Positions 33,880 to 57,781 of a DNA stretch of 64,000 nt are shown here, piece after piece (within the stretch, counting starts at the first letter, position 1; each line of letters begins with the position of its first letter). The notes beneath the pieces were generated by a model. It was not told the origin of the DNA. It saw only the letters and a program-made list of their open reading frames with translations, and did no database searches. The position numbers and the translations under genes were made by a program. This DNA is from Escherichia phage PC3. The DNA lies in the sequence record ON184125; one strand, given 5' to 3'.

Positions 33880-33938
33880 ACATTTCAATAACGGGGCGAG
33901 AGGTATTATTGCCCCGTCTATTAATCGAGGAAATCGCA
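33880..33938 (+). repeat. Copy 1 of a ~45-bp direct repeat with internal hairpin
   Basis: ttcaataacggggcgagaggtattattgccccgtctattaatcgagg; second copy 260 bp downstream. Confidence 0.6.
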
Positions 33939-34139: not shown

Positions 34140-34199
34140 CAGTTTTCAATAACGGGGTGAGAGGTATTATTGCCCCGTCTACTATCCGAGGGTTGTACC
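34140..34199 (+). repeat. Copy 2 of the ~45-bp direct repeat
   Basis: ttcaataacggggtgagaggtattattgccccgtctactatccgagg. Confidence 0.6.
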
Positions 34200-39522: not shown

Positions 39523-41031
39523 ATGGCAGACATTCAGATTGTTAAGGTTAACGAAGTCCGCATGCGTTGCATCGCAGATCTTTCTATCAGGGAAGAACTT
39601 AATGACTACTTCAAATTCGAAGACCCGAACTTCGTTCCCAACCCCTTCTCTAAATGGGACGGGGTTGTCCGCCTATTTACCAAGTCATCTGGTCTAATCG
39701 ATATCGGTCTGCTGTTTGAGGTATTTAAGTTCTGTAAGAACAACGGATACACCATTGAACTGGATCCGGCACTGAAGTACATTCAGGACATCCCAGATGA
39801 AGAAATCCGTGAATTCATCGACAGTCTGCATCCAAAGATCCGTACCGAAAATCACGAATATATCGATGCCGAGACTCGTGACTACCAGTACGACACCATC
39901 GCCAAGGCTATGCGTCAAACCAGATGCGTCTGTGAACTGGCTACGAGTGCCGGTAAGTCCTTTATTCTGTATGTCATGGCGCGGTACTACAGGCGGCGCA
40001 GAGAAGCTCTCGAAAGTCCTCTGAAGACGCTTATCGTGGTGCCGTCAATCCACCTAGTCACTCAGCTGTACGACAACTTCGAAGAGTATGCGCATGGCAG
40101 TGATTGGAAGCCCGTTGTTAACACCCAGCTGATTTTTGAGGGCGCGACAAAGGAGATCAGCAAACCAATCGTCATCAGCACATGGCAAGGCATTCAAGAC
40201 CAGCCGAAGGAATGGTTCCACCAGTTCGGTGATATCGTGGTGGATGAAGTGCACACCTCCAAGTCTGAGAAACTGTCTTACATCCTAAACAACTGCATCT
40301 ATGCCGACCAGCGCCTGGGGGTTACAGGTACGCTGGCGAATACCAAAGTTGCCGGGCTTCAGGTGGTGGCTCACTTCGGGGCGTACCATAAGATCATCAC
40401 GGCTCGCGATCTCATCAATCTCGGGTACGCCACTGACATCAAAGTGAAGATGATTCAGCTGAAGCACACTCCGGCGGATGCTGTTGGTCTGGACGGGGAT
40501 TATTCCAAGGAAATAGAATACCTCATTACACACCAGTCCCGCAACGAACTGATCGCCAAGATGGCACTGAATCTGAAAGGAAACGTGGCCATCATGTTCG
40601 AGCGTATTGATGGTCACATGATGGTCGTGTATGATATGCTGAGCGCAGTCAAGCCCAACGTGTTTGTCATCAACGGGGAAGTGAAGATCGAAGACCGCCG
40701 CCGCATACAGAAAGCGATGGAGGATGGAGAGGACATCACCCTGTTGGCATCATACGGGACAATGCAGCAGGGAGTGTCGATCAAGAAGCTACACCACCTT
40801 GTACTGGCACACCCGAGCAAGTCATATATCCGCGTCATACAGACATTGGGTCGTCTGATGCGTCAGCACTCCTCTAAGGACGTCGCGTGGATATGGGACT
40901 TAGTGGATGATGCATCGTACAACGCCAGCACGAACCACACTCTTAGGCACTCTCACGAGCGTTACAAGTTTTACCTGGCAGAGCGCCACCCCGTGGAGTT
41001 CATGAAGGTGGCGCTGGGTAATCACGATTAA
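39523..41031 (+). CDS. uvsW: UvsW-like SF2 DNA helicase
   Basis: ELATSAGKS Walker A, VVDEVH DExH box, helicase C-terminal motifs; CTAAATA upstream, consistent with late expression of T4 uvsW. Confidence 0.8.
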   Translation: MADIQIVKVNEVRMRCIADLSIREELNDYFKFEDPNFVPNPFSKWDGVVRLFTKSSGLIDIGLLFEVFKFCKNNGYTIELDPALKYIQDIPDEEIREFIDSLHPKIRTENHEYIDAETRDYQYDTIAKAMRQTRCVCELATSAGKSFILYVMARYYRRRREALESPLKTLIVVPSIHLVTQLYDNFEEYAHGSDWKPVVNTQLIFEGATKEISKPIVISTWQGIQDQPKEWFHQFGDIVVDEVHTSKSEKLSYILNNCIYADQRLGVTGTLANTKVAGLQVVAHFGAYHKIITARDLINLGYATDIKVKMIQLKHTPADAVGLDGDYSKEIEYLITHQSRNELIAKMALNLKGNVAIMFERIDGHMMVVYDMLSAVKPNVFVINGEVKIEDRRRIQKAMEDGEDITLLASYGTMQQGVSIKKLHHLVLAHPSKSYIRVIQTLGRLMRQHSSKDVAWIWDLVDDASYNASTNHTLRHSHERYKFYLAERHPVEFMKVALGNHD

Positions 41032-41759: not shown

Positions 41760-42428
41760 ATGCAAGAGATCACTCTCTCCGAACGTACACTTCAGTTGCT
41801 GGCCAACTTTGAGACCATCAACCCATCTATCGTTCTGACACCGGGCAAGATGCTGCGCAGTATTAATGATTCTTCTACTGTGATCGCCGTGGCGCAGATC
41901 GAAGAAGACTTCCCGTTTGAGTTCCCGATTCTGGACCTGACCAAACTTCTGGCCATCCAGCGCCTACCTTCCTTCAAAGGTGCCAAAGCCGAATTCCATC
42001 AGGACTACATCCTGTTGAAAGGCGAAAGCTCTCAGCTGCAATTCTGGCGTTCTGCTAAAGAACTCACGGTTGTCCCGGCTGATACTATTGAACTGCCGTC
42101 TGTCGACTTTGAAGCGATCATCACTCCAGAGAAGATGAAAGAACTGACCCGCGCCTGTTCTACCCTCGGACACAAGACTGTGCGCCTGGTTGCTCAGGGT
42201 GGCAAAACTCGCCTGGTTGCAACCACCACTACCCTGGACAACTCCAACAACTACACTGTTGAGCTGGGCGAAACCGCGCTGCCGGACTTCGTAATGCCAC
42301 TGGATGTTGCCAACCTGAAAATGATCGAAGGCAACTACACTCTGCGTGCATGTGCTGATCTACAAATGGTGAACTTCCAATCATCCGACGCGACGATCAA
42401 TTACTTCGTCGGCGCGCAGATTGAGTAA
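41760..42428 (+). CDS. gp45: Sliding clamp gp45
   Basis: LLANFETINPSIVL matches T4 gp45 LLKNFATINSGIML; 222 aa; gagga SD. Confidence 0.85.
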   Translation: MQEITLSERTLQLLANFETINPSIVLTPGKMLRSINDSSTVIAVAQIEEDFPFEFPILDLTKLLAIQRLPSFKGAKAEFHQDYILLKGESSQLQFWRSAKELTVVPADTIELPSVDFEAIITPEKMKELTRACSTLGHKTVRLVAQGGKTRLVATTTTLDNSNNYTVELGETALPDFVMPLDVANLKMIEGNYTLRACADLQMVNFQSSDATINYFVGAQIE

Positions 42429-42509
42429 TCAATCTCCAGCCTGATGCTATAATGTGTGGGCGGGGGAGTTCCCCGCCTATTTGAAATGATTCTTCTACAC
42501 GAGGCTGAA

Positions 42510-45987: not shown

Positions 45988-46020
45988 AACAGAGGCTATA
46001 ATGGCCTCTGTTTTCGTATT
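45988..46020 (+). terminator. Rho-independent terminator
   Basis: cagaggc-tataatg-gcctctg plus TTTTCG. Confidence 0.5.
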
Positions 46021-46033
46021 CTAAGAGGATACC

Positions 46034-47254
46034 ATGAAAGATAAAGCCCTGGACGTCCCGTACTGCGGTGTCCGTGAAGAAAAGATAAAGTCGGCCAAAC
46101 CGGTTCTCAGTCCGACCCATACCAGCCTGTCTTACGAATGGATGCGCGATCGTTATCAGATCCACGTCAAGAAGGACGTCCAGCGCCTTCCTGCTCCTTG
46201 GACTGATAATCCCATATTACGGCAGGTCAAGTTCTGTAACGTCCGGAGAGAGCACGACAGGCAGTCTCTCAACCTGATCAACAACATCGTCAACAACGAT
46301 GCTCTGGGTATGGCCGACAAGATGTTCAACTGCGTGATGTTTCGCATGTTCAACCTCTGGGATCCAATCCAGGCTATCGGCGGCGCGATGACGATCAAAG
46401 AATTCGCCGAGATCAACCTCGATGCAACCCGCGAACGACTTCAGAAGTTCGAGGCCGACGGCGGTAAGGTATTCACCAATGCCTTCAACACGGGCGGCCT
46501 GAAGCAATGCCTGGCTTTCCCTGAGATGGTTGTCAACCACAAGGAGCAGCGCTTCGGTGGGATGATGGTGAATCTGATCTGTAAAGATGGTTCAACCCAG
46601 AACATGGATTATAAAGAAGCCAAGGCGATAGCCGAAGCAGAACCGGACTTCTACACCATCGAAGGTTGGGAACCGTACATGCCAATGCGTGTCATCCGCT
46701 CCCTGAAGGCATTCGTCAACAAGTATCCAAATTATTTCCATGACCTGCTGCGCCTTGGTACTCCTTTGGAAGTATACCAGCGCATGTACGACGACATCGA
46801 AGGGCTTGGTCCATTCCTGGCCTATCAGATCTGGGTAGACTTCACTTACATTCCTGAATATCCTTTCAGTGAGAACCACTTCACGGTTGCTGGACCAGGC
46901 TGTCGCGCAGGGATCGACCTGATGTTCCAGGACAAAGATGGCATGACGCATGAAGAATGCATCTTCTGGTTGCGGGACAATCAGGACGCGGTTTATGGCC
47001 CTCTTGGGTATAACAGGGAAGAATTTTGGTCTGCGGAAGAGCCTTGGGATCGCCATTTAAATATAATGGCAGGAGAAAATATGTTTTGTGAACTTCAGAA
47101 ATATACCCGTTGTGTAGAGGCCATACAGCAAGGTAAAAAGCCGCGCGGGAAGGTTGGATATGACGGCGGTGGGGAATACAAAAAGCGCTGTGATGAAGTC
47201 GTGCTCAAACGTGGTTCCGTCAATTTGCTGGACCGTTTGAAGAAACCTGAATAA
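46034..47254 (+). CDS. Hypothetical protein (406 aa)
   Basis: Long ORF, no motif recognised. Confidence 0.5.
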   Translation: MKDKALDVPYCGVREEKIKSAKPVLSPTHTSLSYEWMRDRYQIHVKKDVQRLPAPWTDNPILRQVKFCNVRREHDRQSLNLINNIVNNDALGMADKMFNCVMFRMFNLWDPIQAIGGAMTIKEFAEINLDATRERLQKFEADGGKVFTNAFNTGGLKQCLAFPEMVVNHKEQRFGGMMVNLICKDGSTQNMDYKEAKAIAEAEPDFYTIEGWEPYMPMRVIRSLKAFVNKYPNYFHDLLRLGTPLEVYQRMYDDIEGLGPFLAYQIWVDFTYIPEYPFSENHFTVAGPGCRAGIDLMFQDKDGMTHEECIFWLRDNQDAVYGPLGYNREEFWSAEEPWDRHLNIMAGENMFCELQKYTRCVEAIQQGKKPRGKVGYDGGGEYKKRCDEVVLKRGSVNLLDRLKKPE

Positions 47255-47368
47255 AGATTCCCTTTACTTCGTTCTTCAATAACTCAATCCAGCGTATATT
47301 GACCTCACTTAAACGAAGCGCCCTGGCAAACGGGGCGCACATTTGAACTGAAACAGGAAGATTACATC

Positions 47369-49387
47369 ATGTCAGATTTTAAGCCCTTCGCAGTAGCTGT
47401 CAACAATAACGTGCTGGCCATGTCAGCAACTGGTCTGTTCATGACCAACATCGATAAAGATGCTCTGTGGGATCTGTATCTGTCTTCTTTCCCTGCTGGC
47501 ACTAACCCGCTTTATCGTGAGCGTACCGAGCACGACTGCACCTGCTGTAAACAATTCATCCGTAACATCGGCGGTGTGGTCACCATCGACTCCGACCTGA
47601 ACGTGATCTCTATCTGGGATAACATTCAGCTGGGTAACGAATACGACGTTGTCGCTGCGGCGCTGTCAGCATATGTTAAGCAGCACGCAATCGTCGACGT
47701 GTACTTCAACGACACCAAGAAAGTTGGTGTTGAGTCGAATCACGAAATGAAAGACGGTATTGTCCGCACCTACAACCACTTCCACACCGACCTGCTGGGT
47801 AGCTATGTTCTGCGGGCAGATACCATCGCTTCTAAGAAGGGTGAAATCCGCCAGGCGATTGAAGTGTTTGAGCGCGGCCTGCGTGAACTGTCTCTGGAAT
47901 CGGCTGAAATCGTTCTTGAATTGATTGACCAGAATTCTCTGTATCGCGGTGAAGAGCACAAAGCGGCAGTGCAGGCGTTCGTGGTGAACAAGACCCTGTA
48001 CGAACAAACTGCAGAAGAGAAACGCGCTCTGTGGGCTTGGCGCACTGGCTACCGTGCAAACGGTCATACCCCTCACGGCATTCGTAATACCGTGATTGGC
48101 TCTCTGCTGGTAGACCTCAATGAAGGTCGGGATCTGGAAACCGCCGTGAAGTCCTTTGAAGCCAAAGTCGCTCCGACGAACTACAAGCGCCCAACCGCGC
48201 TGGTCACGAAGTCGATGATTGAAAACGCGCAGAAAGAAGTCGAAGCACTGGGTCTGACTGATTCACTGGGTCGCCGTTATGCCGTGTATGACGATCTGAC
48301 CATCAACAACGTTCTGTTCGCCGACCTAGCAGCTCAGAAGAAGATGGACCCGTTTGCTCAGCTGGCGTCTGAAGTGAAGACTCCGACCAAGTCCCTGGAC
48401 AAGGTTGAAGAGATCACGATCGACGACTTCCTGACCAACGTGTTGCCAAAGGCGCATTCCCTGGAAGTGCTGGTCGAAAACTCTCACATTGGCAACCTGA
48501 TGTCCCTGATCGCTCCGGCCACCGCAGGCGCTCCTAACCTGTTCAAGTGGAACAACGGCTTCAGCTGGTCGTACAATGGCGAAGTGGCCGACTCCATCAA
48601 AGAGCGCGTGAAGACCGCAGGCGGCAATGTCGACAGCTTCCTCCGTGTGTCACTGGCTTGGCATAACAACGACGACCTGGATCTGAGCCTGAACGATCCT
48701 CTTCACAACCACGTGTATTATCACAACCGTCGTTCGACAACTGGCGCAACTCTAGACATCGACATGAACGGTATGGACGGCATTGATCCAAACCGCCGTC
48801 CGGTGGAGAACATCTTCTTCAGCGATGAACGCAAGCTGCGTGATGGTCTGTACGAGTTCTATGTCACTAACTTCAGCCAGCGTGAAACCTGTGATATGGG
48901 ATTCGAAATCGAAGTTGAATACAAAGGCCAGACCAAGCGTTTTTCGCATCCTGGCCTGAAGCACAAAGATCGCACTCTGGCTGTTGTGATTGATGTCCGC
49001 GCTGGACAAGTGGTAGACATCCGTTCTACCCTGAAAGACGACGCTCGCTCTCAGGAAATCTGGGGCATCAAGACCTCCGTCTTCCAGAAGGTACAGCTGG
49101 TTCTGAACTCACCAAACCATTGGGACGGCGAGCAGACTGGCAACAAGCACGTGTTCTTCATCCTGGAAGGTTGTGTTAACCCTGTCGGCACCCGTGGTTT
49201 CTATAACGAATATCTGAAGCCGGAACTTGATAAACACCGCAAGGTTTTTGAAATGTTAGGCAGTAAGATTAAAGTACAGCCAAGCACTGAGCAGCTGTCC
49301 GGTCTGGGCTTCTCTACCACCCAACGCAACCACGTGTTCGTGAAGGTGAGCGGTTCTTTCAACCGCACTGTGAAAGTTGTGTTCTAA
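47369..49387 (+). CDS. Hypothetical protein (672 aa)
   Basis: Long ORF, Cys cluster HDCTCCKQF, no polymerase or ATPase motif recognised. Confidence 0.5.
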   Translation: MSDFKPFAVAVNNNVLAMSATGLFMTNIDKDALWDLYLSSFPAGTNPLYRERTEHDCTCCKQFIRNIGGVVTIDSDLNVISIWDNIQLGNEYDVVAAALSAYVKQHAIVDVYFNDTKKVGVESNHEMKDGIVRTYNHFHTDLLGSYVLRADTIASKKGEIRQAIEVFERGLRELSLESAEIVLELIDQNSLYRGEEHKAAVQAFVVNKTLYEQTAEEKRALWAWRTGYRANGHTPHGIRNTVIGSLLVDLNEGRDLETAVKSFEAKVAPTNYKRPTALVTKSMIENAQKEVEALGLTDSLGRRYAVYDDLTINNVLFADLAAQKKMDPFAQLASEVKTPTKSLDKVEEITIDDFLTNVLPKAHSLEVLVENSHIGNLMSLIAPATAGAPNLFKWNNGFSWSYNGEVADSIKERVKTAGGNVDSFLRVSLAWHNNDDLDLSLNDPLHNHVYYHNRRSTTGATLDIDMNGMDGIDPNRRPVENIFFSDERKLRDGLYEFYVTNFSQRETCDMGFEIEVEYKGQTKRFSHPGLKHKDRTLAVVIDVRAGQVVDIRSTLKDDARSQEIWGIKTSVFQKVQLVLNSPNHWDGEQTGNKHVFFILEGCVNPVGTRGFYNEYLKPELDKHRKVFEMLGSKIKVQPSTEQLSGLGFSTTQRNHVFVKVSGSFNRTVKVVF

Positions 49388-50246: not shown

Positions 50247-51119
50247 ATGACAAATCGTACTGGCATAAAACTCACTCCTGAAGTCCTGAAGTCACATATC
50301 GCTGAGGTGATTTACGAAGACCGCGAAGTCGGCGGTCACCGGGCTATCACTTGTCATTTCAAGATGGATAACGGCTTCGTCGTTCACGGCACCAAGCCCA
50401 GCACATCCATAGACCCGGCCAACTTTGATGAAGCCCTGGGCAAAGAGATTTCCTACAATAATACCTTCGACCAGCTGTGGCAGCTCGAGGCGTACCGGGC
50501 GCTTGTTGAACAAGATCTGTTGGCCAAAGCCACGGAAACGGCAGAGATCCGGATCGATAAATACGCTGTTGAACGTAGCGCCCTCTATCCGGCCTATCAC
50601 CTCGGCTTCAATGTGATGATTCAGGACGTGATGTTCAGAGCGGAAAATGGCGAGCGCTTCTTGGCGTCTTTCGTTTGTGGGCCGGATGACATGGAACTTG
50701 TTGTTGAATCTCACAACGCCAAATCTCGTAAGGCTGTTAGTGATTTCCTGCGCGCCAACTCCAAACTCGATCTCACTTATTCGCCATTGGTTCTGCGCAT
50801 CGCCAAGATTTGTCATGAAGCCAACCGCGCATACTGTAAGTCTGTTGGTGACGACTCTCAACTGCCTTGGGAACAATCTCCGGCCTGGCAACGTGAGAGC
50901 GCTTGCAAAGGTGTTATCTTCCATCTCACTGGTGATCGTAAGCCCAGCGAATCACATGAGAGATGGATGGCGGAGAAGGAGTCTGAGGGTTGGGTGTATG
51001 GCCCAGTCAAAGACCCTCAGACCAAACAACACCCTTGCATGGTTCCGTATGGAGAACTCCCGGTACAACAACGCTCCAAAGATTATATTTTCAAATCCAT
51101 TGTAGACTCCTTTAAATAA
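50247..51119 (+). CDS. Hypothetical protein with C-terminal RyR-like domain
   Basis: LPWEQSPAWQRESACKGVIFHLTGDRKPSE...GWVYGPVKDPQTKQHPCMVPYGELP recalls the RyR domain seen in phage proteins. Confidence 0.45.
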   Translation: MTNRTGIKLTPEVLKSHIAEVIYEDREVGGHRAITCHFKMDNGFVVHGTKPSTSIDPANFDEALGKEISYNNTFDQLWQLEAYRALVEQDLLAKATETAEIRIDKYAVERSALYPAYHLGFNVMIQDVMFRAENGERFLASFVCGPDDMELVVESHNAKSRKAVSDFLRANSKLDLTYSPLVLRIAKICHEANRAYCKSVGDDSQLPWEQSPAWQRESACKGVIFHLTGDRKPSESHERWMAEKESEGWVYGPVKDPQTKQHPCMVPYGELPVQQRSKDYIFKSIVDSFK

Positions 51120-51152: not shown

Positions 51153-51188
51153 AATGCCCGGTTATATTCAATCGGGCATTTTTATTAT
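51153..51188 (+). terminator. Terminator hairpin preceding the early promoter
   Basis: aatgcccg-(12-nt loop)-cgggcatt plus TTTTATTAT. Confidence 0.5.
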
Positions 51189-51193
51189 ATTAA

Positions 51194-51224
51194 TTGACAT
51201 CAATACCGCCTGTCGTAATATAAT
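51194..51224 (+). promoter_or_regulatory. Sigma70-like early promoter (TTGACA-16-TAATAT / -19-TATAAT)
   Basis: Canonical -35 TTGACA with AT-rich -10 just after a terminator hairpin; drives the vWA operon. Confidence 0.55.
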
Positions 51225-51269
51225 AGTTCCATGTTGAAATAGTTGGGAAATATAACTCACGAGAGCCTG

Positions 51270-51446
51270 ATGACCGACAACAAATTAAAACGTGCCGGAC
51301 TTGATTGTCTTGACAAATCATTCCGCCCCAGTGATGTTCTGGTCGCCCAAATGGAAAACAACCGGGATTTCATTGAAACTATGCTGGAGAACGCCGACGC
51401 GAACTCCAAACACTCCAAAGCCCAAAAAGGTCAAAACGATGATTGA
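51270..51446 (+). CDS. Small hypothetical protein (58 aa), translationally coupled to the vWA gene
   Basis: ATG downstream of the sigma70-like promoter; stop overlaps the next start (ATGATTGA). Confidence 0.35.
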   Translation: MTDNKLKRAGLDCLDKSFRPSDVLVAQMENNRDFIETMLENADANSKHSKAQKGQNDD

Positions 51447-53640
51447 ATCATTAACATTTAAGAATGCGGTTGCGACCGTCGCGCCGTCTAACCATGTAAT
51501 CGTTGTGGATATCTCCGGTTCCATGTATCGTTCACTTCCAGAAGTCCGTAAGCATCTGAAGGAGAACATGCCTTCCCTGGTGAAACCCGAAGATACTGTG
51601 AGCATCCTTTACTTTTCATCTCGCGGTGATTTCGGAACGGTATTTGCCGGGCGTCAGATCGGTGCCGCATCTGACCTGAGCGAGCTGAACAAACTGATCG
51701 ATCGCTTCCTGCAACCGTCCGGATGTACTGGCTTTGTTGAGCCGTTGAAACTGGCAATGGACACTGCTCGTGGCCTGAAGAAGCCTGGCTATGTCAACAA
51801 CCTGGCGTTCATGACTGACGGGTATGACAACTGCTGGCGTACCAACGAAATTCTACTGGTTGCTGAGACCCTGCCATTTGCTTTCGATAACATTACATTT
51901 ATCGAATATGGCTGGTACTGTAACCGCGAACTGCTGGCGCAGATGGCCGAACGCTCTGGTGCTACTCACGTGTTTGCCGAAGGTCAGACCGAATACCAGA
52001 CCGAGCTGGAAAACGTGCTGAAGTCATCAGTGCCGAAGGTGGTTGTTGATGTGCCTCTGCTATACACCCACGCCATCTATGTTGAAAACGGCGTAGCAAC
52101 TGTTCTGGCGGTACAGCCGGATGAAGACCATCCTATCGGCCACGTGAGCATCCCTGAGAGCGTCGCCAAGCTGTGGGTTGTAAACCCTAACATGATCGAC
52201 CAGCTTGATGCGCTGGCGGATATCCAGGCGGCATACGTGCTGGCGTTCTACGGCGTACACATTATGGACGCGGACCTGGTGTGGGCTGCACTGAAGAAAA
52301 CGGGTGACGTTCGCTTCATCAAACAGTACAGCAACTGCTTCACCAAGCAGGACTACTCCAACATCAAAGTTGATCTGACCCAGGCCATCGTTGATGACCA
52401 GCTGCGCGGCGTTGACGGTATTGACTATGACCTGGTTCCGGCTGAAGATGCGACGACCGTCGTTGACGTGCTGACGTATCTGGCTGAAGCTGGCGTGTGT
52501 GTTGCTACCAAACATCCTATGTTCTCCTACAAGAGCATCGGGCGCGGTACTGTGCAGAAAACCGACGACACCGAAGACAAGCTGGCAGAACAGATCGCGA
52601 ATGCTCAGTCCAAAGAAGAGCGTAAAGCCCTGGCTCTCAAGCTGGCAGAGCACGAAGAGTGGAACCCGACGTTCGAACCTACCAACGACCTGGGTGTTGT
52701 GCCAATCAGCGATTTGGTCTATAACTCCGAGCGCCCGAACATCAGTGTGCGTACAATTCAACACGGTACTGTGGCTGTGCCTGAATTCGCACAGAAGAAG
52801 TTTGGCCTGCCTGAAGAACTGGATACTTTCCAGTGGCGCAACTACACCATCGTCAAAGACGGTATCATTAACGTGAAGACTCTGCCGTTCAAGGCTGATA
52901 TCGAAGTTGTACAGAAGCTGATCGAAATGGGTGTCCACGTGTTTGGTGGTCCGGAAGTGTTTGTCCTGAACCTGGAAAGCGTACCGCTGGTCAACCGCGC
53001 CATGGTCAAAAACATCAGTGCTGCTCAGTTCTTTGCGGATAATGTCCGTCTGGAAGCCCTGAAAGGCAAGCAGAAGGTGCTGAAGTTCTATCGAGACGCC
53101 CTGGTTGGTAAGGGTAACGCCAAAGGCCTGGCAGTACAGTACGGCGCTGAGGCGGCCGAGTTCCTGTCCTCCTACGGTATCCGCGATTACGGCTTCTCAC
53201 CGAAGACTGAGACCAAAGAGTCTACCGACTTCTACATGAGCCGTGAGCTGAACGTTAAGATCGCCGGGGCGTCTTCACTACCGAGCATCGCGGCAGTACA
53301 GAAGAAGATTGCCGAGAACAAGAAACTCAATGCTGGTGACTTGTTCATCGCTAATGCGCTGAAGGAGTACGAAGCATTCGTGAAGTCTCCTATGATCACT
53401 GCCGTGCCTGAATCCTTACAGAAATATCTGATCGAAAACTGGATCGACGCTGCTGCCAAGGCGGCCATCACCGAAGTCCGCGCCCTGAACAAGACACTGT
53501 CTAAAGTGGTTTATGGTATCGTTGCTGGTCATGGCTGGTTCACCGACCTCGACCTGGAAGAGTCCACCATGGAAGTTGAAGTGGATGGCGTGAAGTACAA
53601 GGTCACTGCCGAACTGACAGAGAAAGAAATCAAAATCTAA
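51439..53640 (+). CDS. von Willebrand factor A (vWA) domain protein (733 aa)
   Basis: MIDAS motif VVVDISGSM near the N-terminus; long C-terminal extension of unknown function. Confidence 0.65.
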   Translation: MIESLTFKNAVATVAPSNHVIVVDISGSMYRSLPEVRKHLKENMPSLVKPEDTVSILYFSSRGDFGTVFAGRQIGAASDLSELNKLIDRFLQPSGCTGFVEPLKLAMDTARGLKKPGYVNNLAFMTDGYDNCWRTNEILLVAETLPFAFDNITFIEYGWYCNRELLAQMAERSGATHVFAEGQTEYQTELENVLKSSVPKVVVDVPLLYTHAIYVENGVATVLAVQPDEDHPIGHVSIPESVAKLWVVNPNMIDQLDALADIQAAYVLAFYGVHIMDADLVWAALKKTGDVRFIKQYSNCFTKQDYSNIKVDLTQAIVDDQLRGVDGIDYDLVPAEDATTVVDVLTYLAEAGVCVATKHPMFSYKSIGRGTVQKTDDTEDKLAEQIANAQSKEERKALALKLAEHEEWNPTFEPTNDLGVVPISDLVYNSERPNISVRTIQHGTVAVPEFAQKKFGLPEELDTFQWRNYTIVKDGIINVKTLPFKADIEVVQKLIEMGVHVFGGPEVFVLNLESVPLVNRAMVKNISAAQFFADNVRLEALKGKQKVLKFYRDALVGKGNAKGLAVQYGAEAAEFLSSYGIRDYGFSPKTETKESTDFYMSRELNVKIAGASSLPSIAAVQKKIAENKKLNAGDLFIANALKEYEAFVKSPMITAVPESLQKYLIENWIDAAAKAAITEVRALNKTLSKVVYGIVAGHGWFTDLDLEESTMEVEVDGVKYKVTAELTEKEIKI

Positions 53641-53645
53641 TCCAA

Positions 53646-53670
53646 CGGGCGGGGCAACCCGCCTTTCTTT
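53646..53670 (+). terminator. Rho-independent terminator after the vWA gene
   Basis: ggcggg-gcaa-cccgcc plus TTTCTTT. Confidence 0.55.
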
Positions 53671-53681
53671 GGAGTAATAAC

Positions 53682-54005
53682 ATGAGCAGTAAACCAACAT
53701 ATGTTGAAGTCATGCGTCATCTGGCTCAGTACGCCACTGACAATCTGAATATGGATCTGTGGCGTGACGATGACAAGCGCAAATTGCTGGACGACGTGGC
53801 ATCTCAGAACGAGGACGCCCTGGACAAGCTGGCTGGTCTCCGTACCAAGAAAGACCTCGGCGGTGACGAACTGGATGCCATCGAAATCGTAATGGAACTA
53901 GAAGAAGAGTTTCAGGTCGAAATCGACGACGGGTGGCTAGGTAGTAAAGGCGATGACCCGACCATGGGTGAACTCGCTGAACTCGTGGTTGCCCTGCGCA
54001 AATAA
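53682..54005 (+). CDS. Acyl-carrier-protein-like protein, conserved Ser replaced by Glu
   Basis: KDLGGDELDAIEIVMELEEEFQVEI aligns with the ACP core [24 protein letters not shown]; Glu occupies the phosphopantetheine site. Confidence 0.6.
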   Translation: MSSKPTYVEVMRHLAQYATDNLNMDLWRDDDKRKLLDDVASQNEDALDKLAGLRTKKDLGGDELDAIEIVMELEEEFQVEIDDGWLGSKGDDPTMGELAELVVALRK

Positions 54006-54367: not shown

Positions 54368-54426
54368 TTCTATAACTTTGGGCGGGGTATGATTACCCCG
54401 TCTATTTGAAACCAAGAGACTATATC

Positions 54427-56858: not shown

Positions 56859-57725
56859 ATGCTCCTGACCAAAACAATCGCTGCGGCGATTATCGAAAAG
56901 AATAAGGCTTTTGCCCCCAACGCAGCCAAAGTTATGTTGGTACACGAAGACGCTCGCGTGATCTTCGCCGAGAAGTTCGAGATGGGCGCGAAGTTCTGGT
57001 ATGCCGACAACTTACGTGAGAGCAAACTTCAGGGTATCATCCACAAACTGACTCTGGTCGCCAAGCGTAATGACCAGGGTGACTGGGTCGGCGTTTCTGA
57101 CTTCAGTACGAAGATCACCCCAAAGGCTCCGCTTTCTCGTCAAGAGCGCATTCTGGAAGCCCAGGAAAAGCTGCGTGCGGCTCGGAGTACCCCAAAGGCG
57201 AAACCAGATGCAAGCCCTGTCATCAAGCCAGCGGTTGTTCCTAAGTCCAAATACCTCCCGCCCGTGAGTCAAAAGGCTGTGGAGCAATTGGTCGAGAAGC
57301 GCAAGGGTGACGTTGTGATGAAGTCTGACTCTTCAGTGGAGTCGTTCAAGCCGGATCCAGCAGAAGTACAGGCGCTAGCAGAAAAGGTAAAGAATTCACA
57401 ATTCATTTCCCTGCGTGAACTTGAACCGCCTACTCGCCGTCGTGTCGCCAACGAGCTGTTTGTGTCGTTCAGGTCGGATGGCAAGATCGTCCTGTGCAAA
57501 GCCCTGCGCGATGCAATCCCTTGGACAACTCTGAACATGATGGTCACTCGCGACTTCAAGCGTTTTGGTATCATGCAAGGCAAGGACTACAACGTGAACC
57601 AGAGTGGGACTTATGTCAATCGCGCCATGTGCTCTAAGCTGTCATTCCCTGAAGATACCGGAACGATCCGTGTCGTTCTGAATTGGGATGACAATCTGAA
57701 CATGTATGTTGGCGATTTCCAATAA
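56859..57725 (+). CDS. Hypothetical protein (288 aa)
   Basis: ORF with gaaggaa SD. Confidence 0.45.
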   Translation: MLLTKTIAAAIIEKNKAFAPNAAKVMLVHEDARVIFAEKFEMGAKFWYADNLRESKLQGIIHKLTLVAKRNDQGDWVGVSDFSTKITPKAPLSRQERILEAQEKLRAARSTPKAKPDASPVIKPAVVPKSKYLPPVSQKAVEQLVEKRKGDVVMKSDSSVESFKPDPAEVQALAEKVKNSQFISLRELEPPTRRRVANELFVSFRSDGKIVLCKALRDAIPWTTLNMMVTRDFKRFGIMQGKDYNVNQSGTYVNRAMCSKLSFPEDTGTIRVVLNWDDNLNMYVGDFQ

Positions 57726-57781
57726 TCAATAACCTCGGGCGGCTTATCATAAAGCTGCCCTTTCATTTGAGTGACTATATC

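Follow-up and report, generated by a model that had tools for sequence, protein, structure and literature searches.

The vWA gene of an Ackermannviridae phage, together with a small ORF that precedes it, forms a bicistronic unit between two terminators. The unit was examined in a window of 64,000 nucleotides from Escherichia phage PC3 (ON184125), which is 100% identical, at the same coordinates, to Escherichia phage PH4 (ON184126.1; Ackermannviridae). The operon itself is ordinary, and its large product is an uncharacterised protein under strong conservation, in which a vWA domain and a β-sandwich are joined in an unvarying arrangement to a conserved module of ∼480 residues without a known fold. 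The reading that best explains the data as a whole, and which is adopted here tentatively, is that of a translationally coupled unit of the middle or delayed type whose large product may be a cytoplasmic MIDAS adaptor serving phage development.

Organization of the two-gene unit

On the plus strand the unit is ordered as terminator, promoter-like site, 58-aa ORF, 8-nt overlap, 733-aa ORF, and terminator, and both genes are annotated in the PH4 record (PH4_000051 and PH4_000052). The upstream hairpin (51153–51180, plus strand), correctly placed ahead of the promoter-like site in the first-pass annotation, has an 11-bp stem and ends a RyR/N4-gp49-like gene; UUUUUAUUAUAUU follows it directly, with the U-tract extending to ∼51192. 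The hairpin folds at −18.4 kcal/mol (z = −5.3), a stability that none of 200 shuffles equaled. The downstream terminator (53647–53664, plus strand; −18.5 kcal/mol, z = −3.1) closes the unit, and the next gene, encoding an acyl carrier protein, starts at 53682. Both flanking elements consist of a GC-rich hairpin and a U-tract, as is required of intrinsic terminators, and both are also annotated in the Maynard record. The vWA gene sits within a replication and nucleotide-metabolism block, outside the structural modules, with neighbors that encode the clamp loader, RegA, a Dda/PIF1 helicase, thymidylate synthase, DHFR, dCMP deaminase, and DNA polymerase.

The small ORF, PH4_000051 (51270–51446, plus strand; pI 5.2), has the 58 codons originally counted, and a weak Shine-Dalgarno sequence, GAGAG (51261–51265, plus strand), can be read 4 nt before its ATG. 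It matches phrog_11447 (E = 6e-45) and occurs in 221 phage records, all of the Ackermannviridae type. Orthologues in four genera keep the reading frame and the motif G-x-D-x-L-D..F-x-P-S..L..Q-x-E-x-N-R-x-F, and substitutions are most frequent at the third codon position, followed by the first and then the second. Judged by these sequence comparisons, the small ORF is a real gene specific to Ackermannviridae. It adjoins the vWA gene at every inspected Ackermannviridae locus.

The junction between the two genes (51427–51446, plus strand) contains an AAGG Shine-Dalgarno sequence within the small ORF (51427–51430), 8 nt upstream of the second ATG, and an 8-nt start/stop overlap, ATGATTGA (51439–51446). 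The junction sequence AAGGnAAnAACGATGATTGA is kept in Kuttervirus, Agtrevirus, Limestonevirus, and Taipeivirus. Conservation of the overlap and of the upstream AAGG in four genera supports the earlier suggestion of translational coupling, by which the vWA gene would be translated through the small ORF. The small protein ends in an acidic tail (...GQNDD), the conservation of which is confounded because the Shine-Dalgarno sequence and start codon of the vWA gene overlap it; this acidic protein may be an Ackermannviridae-specific partner or regulator that is co-made with the large protein.

The vWA domain and β-sandwich form an ArnB/Sec23-24-type core

PH4_000052 (51439–53640, plus strand) encodes a protein of 733 residues (81.2 kDa, pI 5.1) that matches phrog_2426 ('unknown function') over its full length; neither a signal peptide nor a transmembrane segment is evident. 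The AF2 model has a pLDDT of 87.5. The vWA domain (residues ∼17–195; 51487–52023, plus strand) has the Rossmann-like α/β fold and is recognized by Pfam VWA PF00092 over residues 20–184 (27.3 bits vs a cut-off of 23.8). The N-terminal MIDAS motif noticed at first reading, VVVDISGSM, occupies residues 21–29. Conservation places the MIDAS residues at D24, S26, and S28 (51508–51522), T97 (51727–51729), and D127 (51817–51819), all on the plus strand; they do not vary among 51 homologues, conservation across 246 sequences is at least 93%, and DxSxS is present in 241 of the 245 full-length relatives. The Pfam score and this invariance establish that the MIDAS is real and not a chance match, which had been named at the outset as a possible refutation.

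The β-sandwich (residues ∼196–250; 52024–52188, plus strand) follows the vWA domain, and the two together align to 4fx5, ArnB, and Sec23/24, superposing as a single ArnB/Sec23-24-type core. Shared with ArnB/VWA2 of Sulfolobus (8s05_B, 5a8j) and 4fx5 from Catenulispora is an 'orphan' MIDAS vWA domain, probably cytoplasmic in the phage protein as well, followed directly by a β-sandwich. Sequence identity to these proteins is only 13–17%, and the phage protein has ∼410 extra residues without a counterpart in them. ArnB, a protein of ∼380 residues, partners with the FHA/zinc-ribbon protein ArnA under kinase control, whereas neither an ArnA-like partner nor a kinase was identified for the phage protein. 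The core was also compared with the trunk and β-barrel of Sec23/Sec24 (1m2v, 3eh2, 2nup) and with ITIH heavy chains (6fpy). The zinc-finger, helical, and gelsolin domains of Sec23/24 were not detected in the phage protein, which also has no membrane-coat context, and ITIH proteins are extracellular.

A conserved C-terminal module without structural relatives

The remainder of the protein (residues 251–733, ∼480 aa; 52189–53637, plus strand) is a family-specific module. Searches with the C-terminal 484 residues returned nothing from Pfam, NCBIfam, PADLOC, or PDB sequences and only 'unknown function' from PHROGs, in line with the ∼500 residues of unknown function described at the outset. The module is modeled with a pLDDT of 89.9; structural searches found no relatives, and BFVD returned family members only. 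Its near-invariant polar residues are D290, Q304, Y364, R432, N434, S436, R467, D474, N519, K546, D597, Y599, and W700. With a confident model, no structural relative, and a dozen near-invariant polar residues, the protein is a tractable target for structural and functional work.

The family comprises 1,030 cluster representatives, and nearly all of the best 150 are 680–820 residues long, with the module extending from about residue 250 to the end. An alignment of 246 sequences has 52 columns with identity of at least 93%. Members in the phage collection belong to Ackermannviridae, several T4-like lineages, and PBS1/AR9; the family is uniform in length, and the hosts range from enterobacteria to Rhizobium and Bacillus. 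The vWA gene is conserved in the 150 Vi01-like phages that have been compared (PMC10892097), and many of these serve in the biocontrol of Salmonella, E. coli O157, and Dickeya. A cell-autonomous bacterial function was rejected, there being only 6 full-length relatives in 185,579 species genomes; at least one of the six is probably on a phage contig, and their neighborhoods have no common partner gene. Partnership with PH4_47 (672 aa) or with the DUF3268 zinc-finger protein was likewise discarded, as the distributions across phages differ, and a link to thymidine hypermodification was rejected because that modification can be carried out in vitro with five other ViI genes alone.

The upstream region fits a phage-specific promoter motif

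Between the terminator and the small ORF lie a −35-like hexamer, TTGACA (51194–51199, plus strand), and a −10 region, TAATATAAT (51216–51224, plus strand), that contains both TAATAT (51216–51221, spacer of 16) and TATAAT (51219–51224, spacer of 19). The hexamers and spacings are as the first-pass annotation described them; its further claims, that this is a strong sigma-70 early promoter and the best of the host type in the window, overstate the case. TTGACA-16-TAATAT scores 10/12 against sigma-70, a score tied by ∼15 other sites in the window and exceeded by a minus-strand site at 47403 (11/12), and the 17 sigma-70-like sites in the 46–58 kb interval are near the shuffle expectation of 10.7 ± 3.4. 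Among intergenic sites in the correct orientation, however, TTGACA-16-TAATAT alone has a perfect −35 hexamer. Sequence comparison showed this hexamer to be private to PH4, the product of a G-to-A change: Det7, 4HA11, and Maynard have TTGGCA, so that the −35 element is not conserved in relatives, and the upstream regions of SS9, Mutine, and A221 read TTCAATTAAC-N9-TATAAT without TTGACA.

TATAAT is preceded by a phage-specific upstream box, ATCAATACC (51199–51207, plus strand; consensus TTCAATAAC), which ends 11 nt before the −10 hexamer, and the two fit the motif TTCAATAAC-N11-TATNAT. The window contains nine matches to this motif vs 0.78 ± 0.95 expected, an excess that is inflated because the motif was defined after viewing this window. 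Eight of the nine are intergenic, on the plus strand, and 30–79 nt upstream of a start codon. The motif stands ahead of the vWA unit in Maynard, SS9, Mutine, A221, RC-2014, Menlow, and IME250 and heads the unit in four Ackermannviridae genera; none was found in the 1.5 kb upstream of the unit in Ag3. The small ORF lacks a preceding intergenic gap in Ag3, Menlow, and RC-2014.

For sigma-70 alone, a −35-like element at a distance of 14 nt from the −10 would be too close. In MotA-dependent middle promoters of T4, the MotA box lies ∼12 nt upstream of a sigma-70 −10 element. The PH4 site is similar in that a TATNAT −10 is preceded by a box, ending 11 nt upstream, in place of a well-spaced −35; it differs in the box itself (TTCAATAAC rather than TGCTTtA), and Ackermannviridae, unlike T4, have no recognizable MotA or AsiA. 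The layout resembles that of an activator-dependent middle promoter.

Late genes of PH4 have a different signal, CTAAATAY, which precedes structural genes (10 matches vs 2.5 expected). Ahead of the vWA unit, neither CTAAATAY nor the T4-type late motif TATAAATA occurs in PH4 or at the eight other Ackermannviridae loci checked, and the unit's promoter fits a phage-specific, non-late motif. The cyanophage-type late motif NATATAATA does match the PH4 −10 region; the match was judged coincidental because PH4 late genes use CTAAATAY. Transcription would start near 51231, ∼7 nt past TATAAT, from a promoter that is probably not an immediate-early one of the sigma-70 kind but belongs to a middle or delayed type; the chance TTGACA in PH4 may add some activity with host RNA polymerase only. 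Early and middle promoters of ViI-like phages are stated to have escaped identification (PMC3184105), and TTCAATAAC-N11-TATNAT could be the missing class.

Expression timing and virion association

The Ackermannviridae and Kuttervirus transcriptome literature yielded nothing usable. The only family member with expression data is the AR9 homologue g068, with values of 0.96, 106, and 431 at 5, 20, and 40 min. A value of 0.96 at 5 min that rises later means that g068 is not early, contrary to the early expression first proposed, and g068 behaves as a late-class gene. The evidence on timing is mixed overall: the late motif is absent, but the AR9 homologue rises late and peptides of the orthologue are present in LIMEstone1 virions.

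In purified LIMEstone1 virions, ORF108 ('vWa containing protein', 81 kDa) was detected by 6 unique peptides covering 11.4% of the sequence, more than was obtained for some bona fide structural proteins of the same table and compared with one peptide each for the contaminants flagged by the authors. In CsCl-purified Sajous1 the orthologue is represented by 1 spectrum, equal to the clamp loader and dUTPase. The name 'phage associated protein' is not given to the orthologue in Vi01, AR9 g068 carries no virion-protein label, and the virion proteome papers on phiD3, PD10.3, and PP35 do not mention the vWA protein. Virion association, which had been named at the outset as evidence that would count against an early role, is partly indicated by the LIMEstone1 peptides, with little or no virion signal elsewhere.

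Proposed role and alternative explanations

The 81-kDa protein would stay in the cytoplasm and, from what is generally known of MIDAS domains, may act as a metal-dependent, protein-binding adaptor. It would hold a partner by an acidic or phosphorylated residue, presenting that residue to the conserved C-terminal module or being regulated through the module. The conserved role would lie in intracellular development of the phage itself, while replication proceeds and afterward, and probably not in host-specific takeover or anti-defence.

The first-pass annotation had proposed that last role as a candidate, with a strong host sigma-70 promoter driving an immediate-early vWA protein for host takeover or neutralization of defences. 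The 10/12 site in the intergenic gap right after the terminator, the missing late motif, and the position among prereplicative genes speak for it, as do the use of vWA domains as peptide-binding modules in conflict systems and the report of only about eight sigma-70-like promoters each in CBA120 and AG3, thought to act early. We nevertheless consider it improbable, given that the perfect −35 is a PH4-only substitution, that the gap is missing in three relatives, that the AR9 homologue is not early, and that the LIMEstone1 orthologue is found in purified virions. Neither gene of the unit nor any neighboring gene matched a PADLOC profile, and a long protein of uniform length with 52 near-invariant columns across phages of very diverse hosts is unlike a fast-evolving counter-defence gene. 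The original interpretation is partly supported: what it described is mostly an ordinary operon, with the promoter over-read. Its other remark, that vWA proteins usually act in ATPase-associated or membrane complexes, finds no support as regards a nearby MoxR-type ATPase in the contexts examined. That the protein works as cochaperone to such an AAA+ ATPase, on the pattern of RavA-ViaA, NorQ-NorD, CobS-CobT, and the ATV tail system, is highly unlikely: no MoxR-type gene was seen within ±12 kb in PH4 (39–66 kb) or beside homologues in 12 other contexts, and the proteins conserved across Vi01-like phages include neither MoxR nor CobS. In the MoxR-associated proteins ViaA, NorD, CbbO, BchD, and CobT the vWA domain has a cognate AAA+ gene, which the phage neighborhoods examined lack; the phage family also differs from them in having the vWA domain at the N terminus, followed by a unique module, and its best extended structural matches are the orphan vWA and β-sandwich proteins.

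Packaging is a further alternative, in which the vWA protein would be made middle-to-late and be either a low-copy virion-associated protein, possibly ejected, or a morphogenesis factor. The LIMEstone1 peptides, the Sajous1 spectrum, and the late rise of AR9 g068 argue for it, and in some GenBank records homologues carry the name 'minor head' or 'minor tail' protein, seemingly through automated labels. We regard it as unlikely, since the late motif is absent at 9 of 9 loci, the structural modules do not include the gene, comparisons revealed no similarity to virion proteins, the Sajous1 signal does not exceed that of replication and nucleotide enzymes, and the orthologues of AR9 and, by its naming convention, Vi01 are not flagged as particle proteins.

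A broader proposal is offered as speculative and doubtful. T4-superfamily and PBS1-like phages would share, in the vWA protein with its C-terminal module, a component that is widely conserved and has gone unrecognized. The C-terminal part would adopt a new fold and contain a conserved polar site, belonging to an enzyme or to a binder of ligands or nucleic acid, and controlled through the MIDAS. Expression in Ackermannviridae would come from a new, activator-dependent class of TTCAATAAC promoters, which would be the missing early/middle class of the family, and a few copies of the protein might enter the particle and accompany the DNA on delivery.

Architecture of the vWA unit

A 2.6-kb query matched Escherichia phage PH4 (ON184126.1; Ackermannviridae, Aglimvirinae) at 100% identity, and the record shares the coordinates of the window. 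The vWA unit lies entirely on the + strand and contains an upstream terminator (51153–51180; an 11-bp hairpin followed by a U-tract, −18.4 kcal/mol, z = −5.3), a −35-like TTGACA (51194–51199) placed 16 nt from TAATAT and 19 nt from TATAAT, a small ORF of 58 aa (51270–51446), the 733-aa vWA ORF (51439–53640), and a closing terminator (53647–53664; −18.5 kcal/mol, z = −3.1). The vWA ORF starts inside ATGATTGA with AAGG 8 nt 5′ of the start, which is confirmed by the orthologues, all having MI.... at the N-terminus. All sequence features listed by the first-pass annotation were found in place. The two-gene unit itself is ordinary, and GenBank already annotates the gene as a vWA-domain protein of unknown function.

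The probable promoter fits a phage-specific motif

The promoter had been called the best host-type promoter in the window. This is an overstatement, because it scores 10/12 by simple hexamer scoring, ∼15 further sites score equally, one site scores 11/12, and promoter-like matches showed no clear enrichment over shuffles in the scan. Among the scanned sites it is the only intergenic, correctly oriented one with a perfect −35 hexamer; Det7, 4HA11 and Maynard have TTGGCA (∼98% identity over the spacer), making the perfect −35 private to PH4. The 11/12 site, the top sigma-70 pattern match of the window (47403–47376, minus strand; TTGACA-16-TAAAAT), is antisense at the 5′ end of PH4_47. No gene on the minus strand follows it, and the match probably arose by chance.

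TATAAT, poorly spaced from TTGACA at 19 nt, is found exactly 11 nt 3′ of ATCAATACC. The pattern [ATG]TC[AT]AT-N13/14-TAT[N][AT]T, with the core TTCAATAAC-N11-TATNAT, matched nine sites on both strands of the window vs 0.78 ± 0.95 expected from Markov simulations, statistics that are optimistic since the pattern was set after the sites were seen. All but one lie on the + strand (33884–33909, 34145–34170, 42428–42453, 47275–47300, 51167–51191, 51199–51224, 54368–54393 and 57725–57750), essentially intergenic (at least 96%) and 30–79 nt 5′ of the start codon of non-structural genes; only 6.6% of the window is intergenic. The same regular expression matches the head of the small ORF/vWA unit in RC-2014 (Limestonevirus), Menlow and IME250 (Taipeivirus), loci that played no part in defining the motif, and likewise in Maynard, SS9, Mutine and A221. 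Ag3 was the only case among the loci checked in which the motif was not found within 1.5 kb upstream.

The −35-like TTCAAT is just 14 nt from the −10, too close for normal use by sigma-70. In its box/−10 layout the site resembles the middle promoters of T4 with their MotA box, but neither MotA nor AsiA is recognisable in ViI-like phages. Of the earlier proposal of an early sigma-70 promoter, the promoter itself is probably real and of a non-late class, whereas its early sigma-70 status is not established, given the PH4-private −35 and the phage-type motif. Assignment of the vWA promoter to a phage-specific motif is new. Early and middle promoters of ViI-like phages have been reported as unidentified (PMC3184105), and the motif may represent this class.

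Structural genes are preceded at ∼25–35 nt by CTAAATAY (10 matches in the window vs 2.5 expected; + strand, 2621, 5455, 10861, 17372, 17412, 21646, 25939, 29480, 36294 and 39491). It is found before tail-spike, baseplate, tail-tube and prohead genes, with one copy before the helicase gene at 39523, and probably represents the gp55-type late promoter of PH4. Both CTAAATAY and TATAAATA were absent upstream of the vWA unit in PH4 and 8 other Ackermannviridae loci checked.

Possible overlaps of hairpin and promoter-like motif were noted at 33893–33922, 34154–34183, 54377–54406, 57734–57760, 45988–46012 and 51153–51180. Several of these sites hold the spacer and −10 within a GC-rich hairpin whose loop contains or adjoins TATTAT, TATGAT, TATCAT, TATAAT or TATATT, and there one element looks to double as terminator of the upstream gene and promoter of the next.

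The C-terminal module and the small ORF

Residues 20–184 of the vWA protein match Pfam VWA above the gathering threshold. The metal-site (MIDAS) residues D24, S26, S28, T97 and D127 are invariant across 51 homologues and at least 93% conserved in a set of 246, and DxSxS is present in 241/245 full-length relatives. An AlphaFold2 model from a 51-homologue alignment reached pLDDT 87.5, and residues 250–733 modelled separately reached 89.9. This C-terminal module retrieved only its own family from BFVD and has no covering model in Pfam, NCBIfam or PADLOC. Exhaustive phmmer with the C-terminal part gave 1,030 cluster representatives. Of the best 150 listed, almost all are 680–820 aa long and carry the module from residue ∼250 up to the C-terminus; the vWA-plus-module architecture is therefore fixed. 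New here are this evidence and the finding that no structural relative is known for the C-terminal two-thirds. In 52 columns, identity reaches at least 93% over 246 sequences; among these columns are the polar residues D290, Q304, Y364, R432, N434, S436, R467, D474, N519, K546, D597 and Y599. The module is under as much constraint as the MIDAS domain, suggesting a specific binding or catalytic site.

The small ORF matches phrog_11447 (E = 6e-45), and its substitutions follow the codon-position order third > first > second. Kuttervirus, Agtrevirus, Limestonevirus and Taipeivirus have orthologues of 47–58 aa ahead of vWA and keep the junction AAGGnAAnAACGATGATTGA. It is present in 221 phage records, all Ackermannviridae-type, and no such ORF was seen upstream of distant vWA homologues (Slopekvirus, pf16, PBS1, metagenomic contigs, bacterial loci); judged by this distribution, it is a lineage-specific companion outside the conserved core. 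Its acidic end (...NNDD) would be a natural candidate MIDAS ligand, but the same nucleotides encode the vWA Shine-Dalgarno sequence and start codon, so that conservation of this end says little either way. In Dickeya phage RC-2014, the annotated 180-aa ORF DA66_0073 (981–1523 of the locus examined) is probably an in-frame run-on whose last 56 codons (MTNQINRAG...) are the small-ORF orthologue.

Distribution and possible role of the vWA protein

By tblastn the vWA protein occurs in 503 phage records, covering Ackermannviridae, Straboviridae of Slopekvirus and Karamvirus types, Pseudomonas phage pf16 and Rhizobium phages, with a homologue in Bacillus phage PBS1 (28.8% identity, 79% coverage). 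A comparison of 150 Vi01-like phages lists it with their conserved proteins (PMC10892097). Bacterial genomes are nearly devoid of relatives (6 full-length in 185,579 species), and no partner gene is common to the neighbourhoods of these six. One of the six, of 49% identity, is carried by a 178,077-bp contig in the Flagellimonas marina assembly (NZ_JBHSCL010000010.1); from its size and this identity, the contig is probably a T4-like (Karamvirus-like) phage genome inside the assembly.

We tentatively favor, at somewhat under an even chance, a joint reading in which the vWA protein would be a cytoplasmic MIDAS adaptor with a conserved C-terminal activity, transcribed from a non-late, probably activator-dependent promoter and translationally coupled to a lineage-specific small acidic partner, and would serve the phage's own programme inside the cell, both during replication and afterwards. 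Its co-directional neighbours in PH4 and metagenomic T4-like contigs are clamp loader, RegA, Dda/PIF1 helicase, thymidylate synthase, DHFR, dCMP deaminase, ligase and polymerase. No MoxR-type ATPase or other recurrent neighbour was seen in the contexts examined, and a MoxR cochaperone role is highly improbable. The first-pass annotation saw a host-takeover or anti-defence candidate; its strong and uniform conservation in phages whose hosts are unrelated counts against this, and such a host-specific role is quite unlikely.

A low-copy virion or morphogenesis role is unlikely, and the available evidence on timing and location is conflicting. Literature searches turned up no transcriptome for Ackermannviridae. 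In the proteome of purified LIMEstone1 virions, ORF108 ('vWa containing protein', 81.06 kDa) was detected with 11.4% coverage and 6 unique peptides, against one peptide apiece for the author-flagged contaminants. AR9 g068 corresponds by synteny to PBS1 gene 259, a match of the PH4 vWA protein, and belongs to the AR9 late class (values of 0.96, 105.6 and 431.5 at 5, 20 and 40 min). In part, but not decisively, the evidence thus points to the virion association or late expression that the first-pass annotation named as refuting its reading. The VWA protein of Sajous1 virions gave one spectrum, equal to clamp loader and dUTPase, and AR9 g068 bears no virion-protein label. The Vi01 orthologue is named 'putative uncharacterised protein'; other Vi01 proteins are named 'phage associated protein', which, going by the naming, would mark particle-detected proteins.

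Genomic surroundings

A mosaic breakpoint lies at ∼51600–51700, in the 5′-terminal part of the vWA gene. From 50600 to ∼51650 PH4 is 97–99% identical to Kuttervirus Maynard and Det7, and from ∼51650 on it is 91–100% identical to Aglimvirinae phage A221 but just 80–89% to Maynard; this switch indicates that the promoter, small ORF and first ∼60–80 vWA codons were exchanged as a cassette. The gene directly upstream (50247–51119) fuses an N4 gp49/Sf6 gp66-family domain (residues 9–84) to a RyR domain (235–279). After the vWA terminator, a phage acyl-carrier-protein gene (PP-binding; 53682–54005) has no promoter motif of its own and may be expressed by read-through.

Two large proteins, of 406 aa (46034–47254) and 672 aa (47369–49387, PH4_47), have no Pfam match and by gene order appear to correspond to Sajous1 gp179 and gp180 (3 and 1 virion spectra, respectively). 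The latter are annotated 'putative DNA-directed RNA polymerase', a label for which no sequence support was found in the two PH4 proteins. PH4_47 is preceded by a separate promoter of the TTCAATAAC type and is present in 557 phage records.
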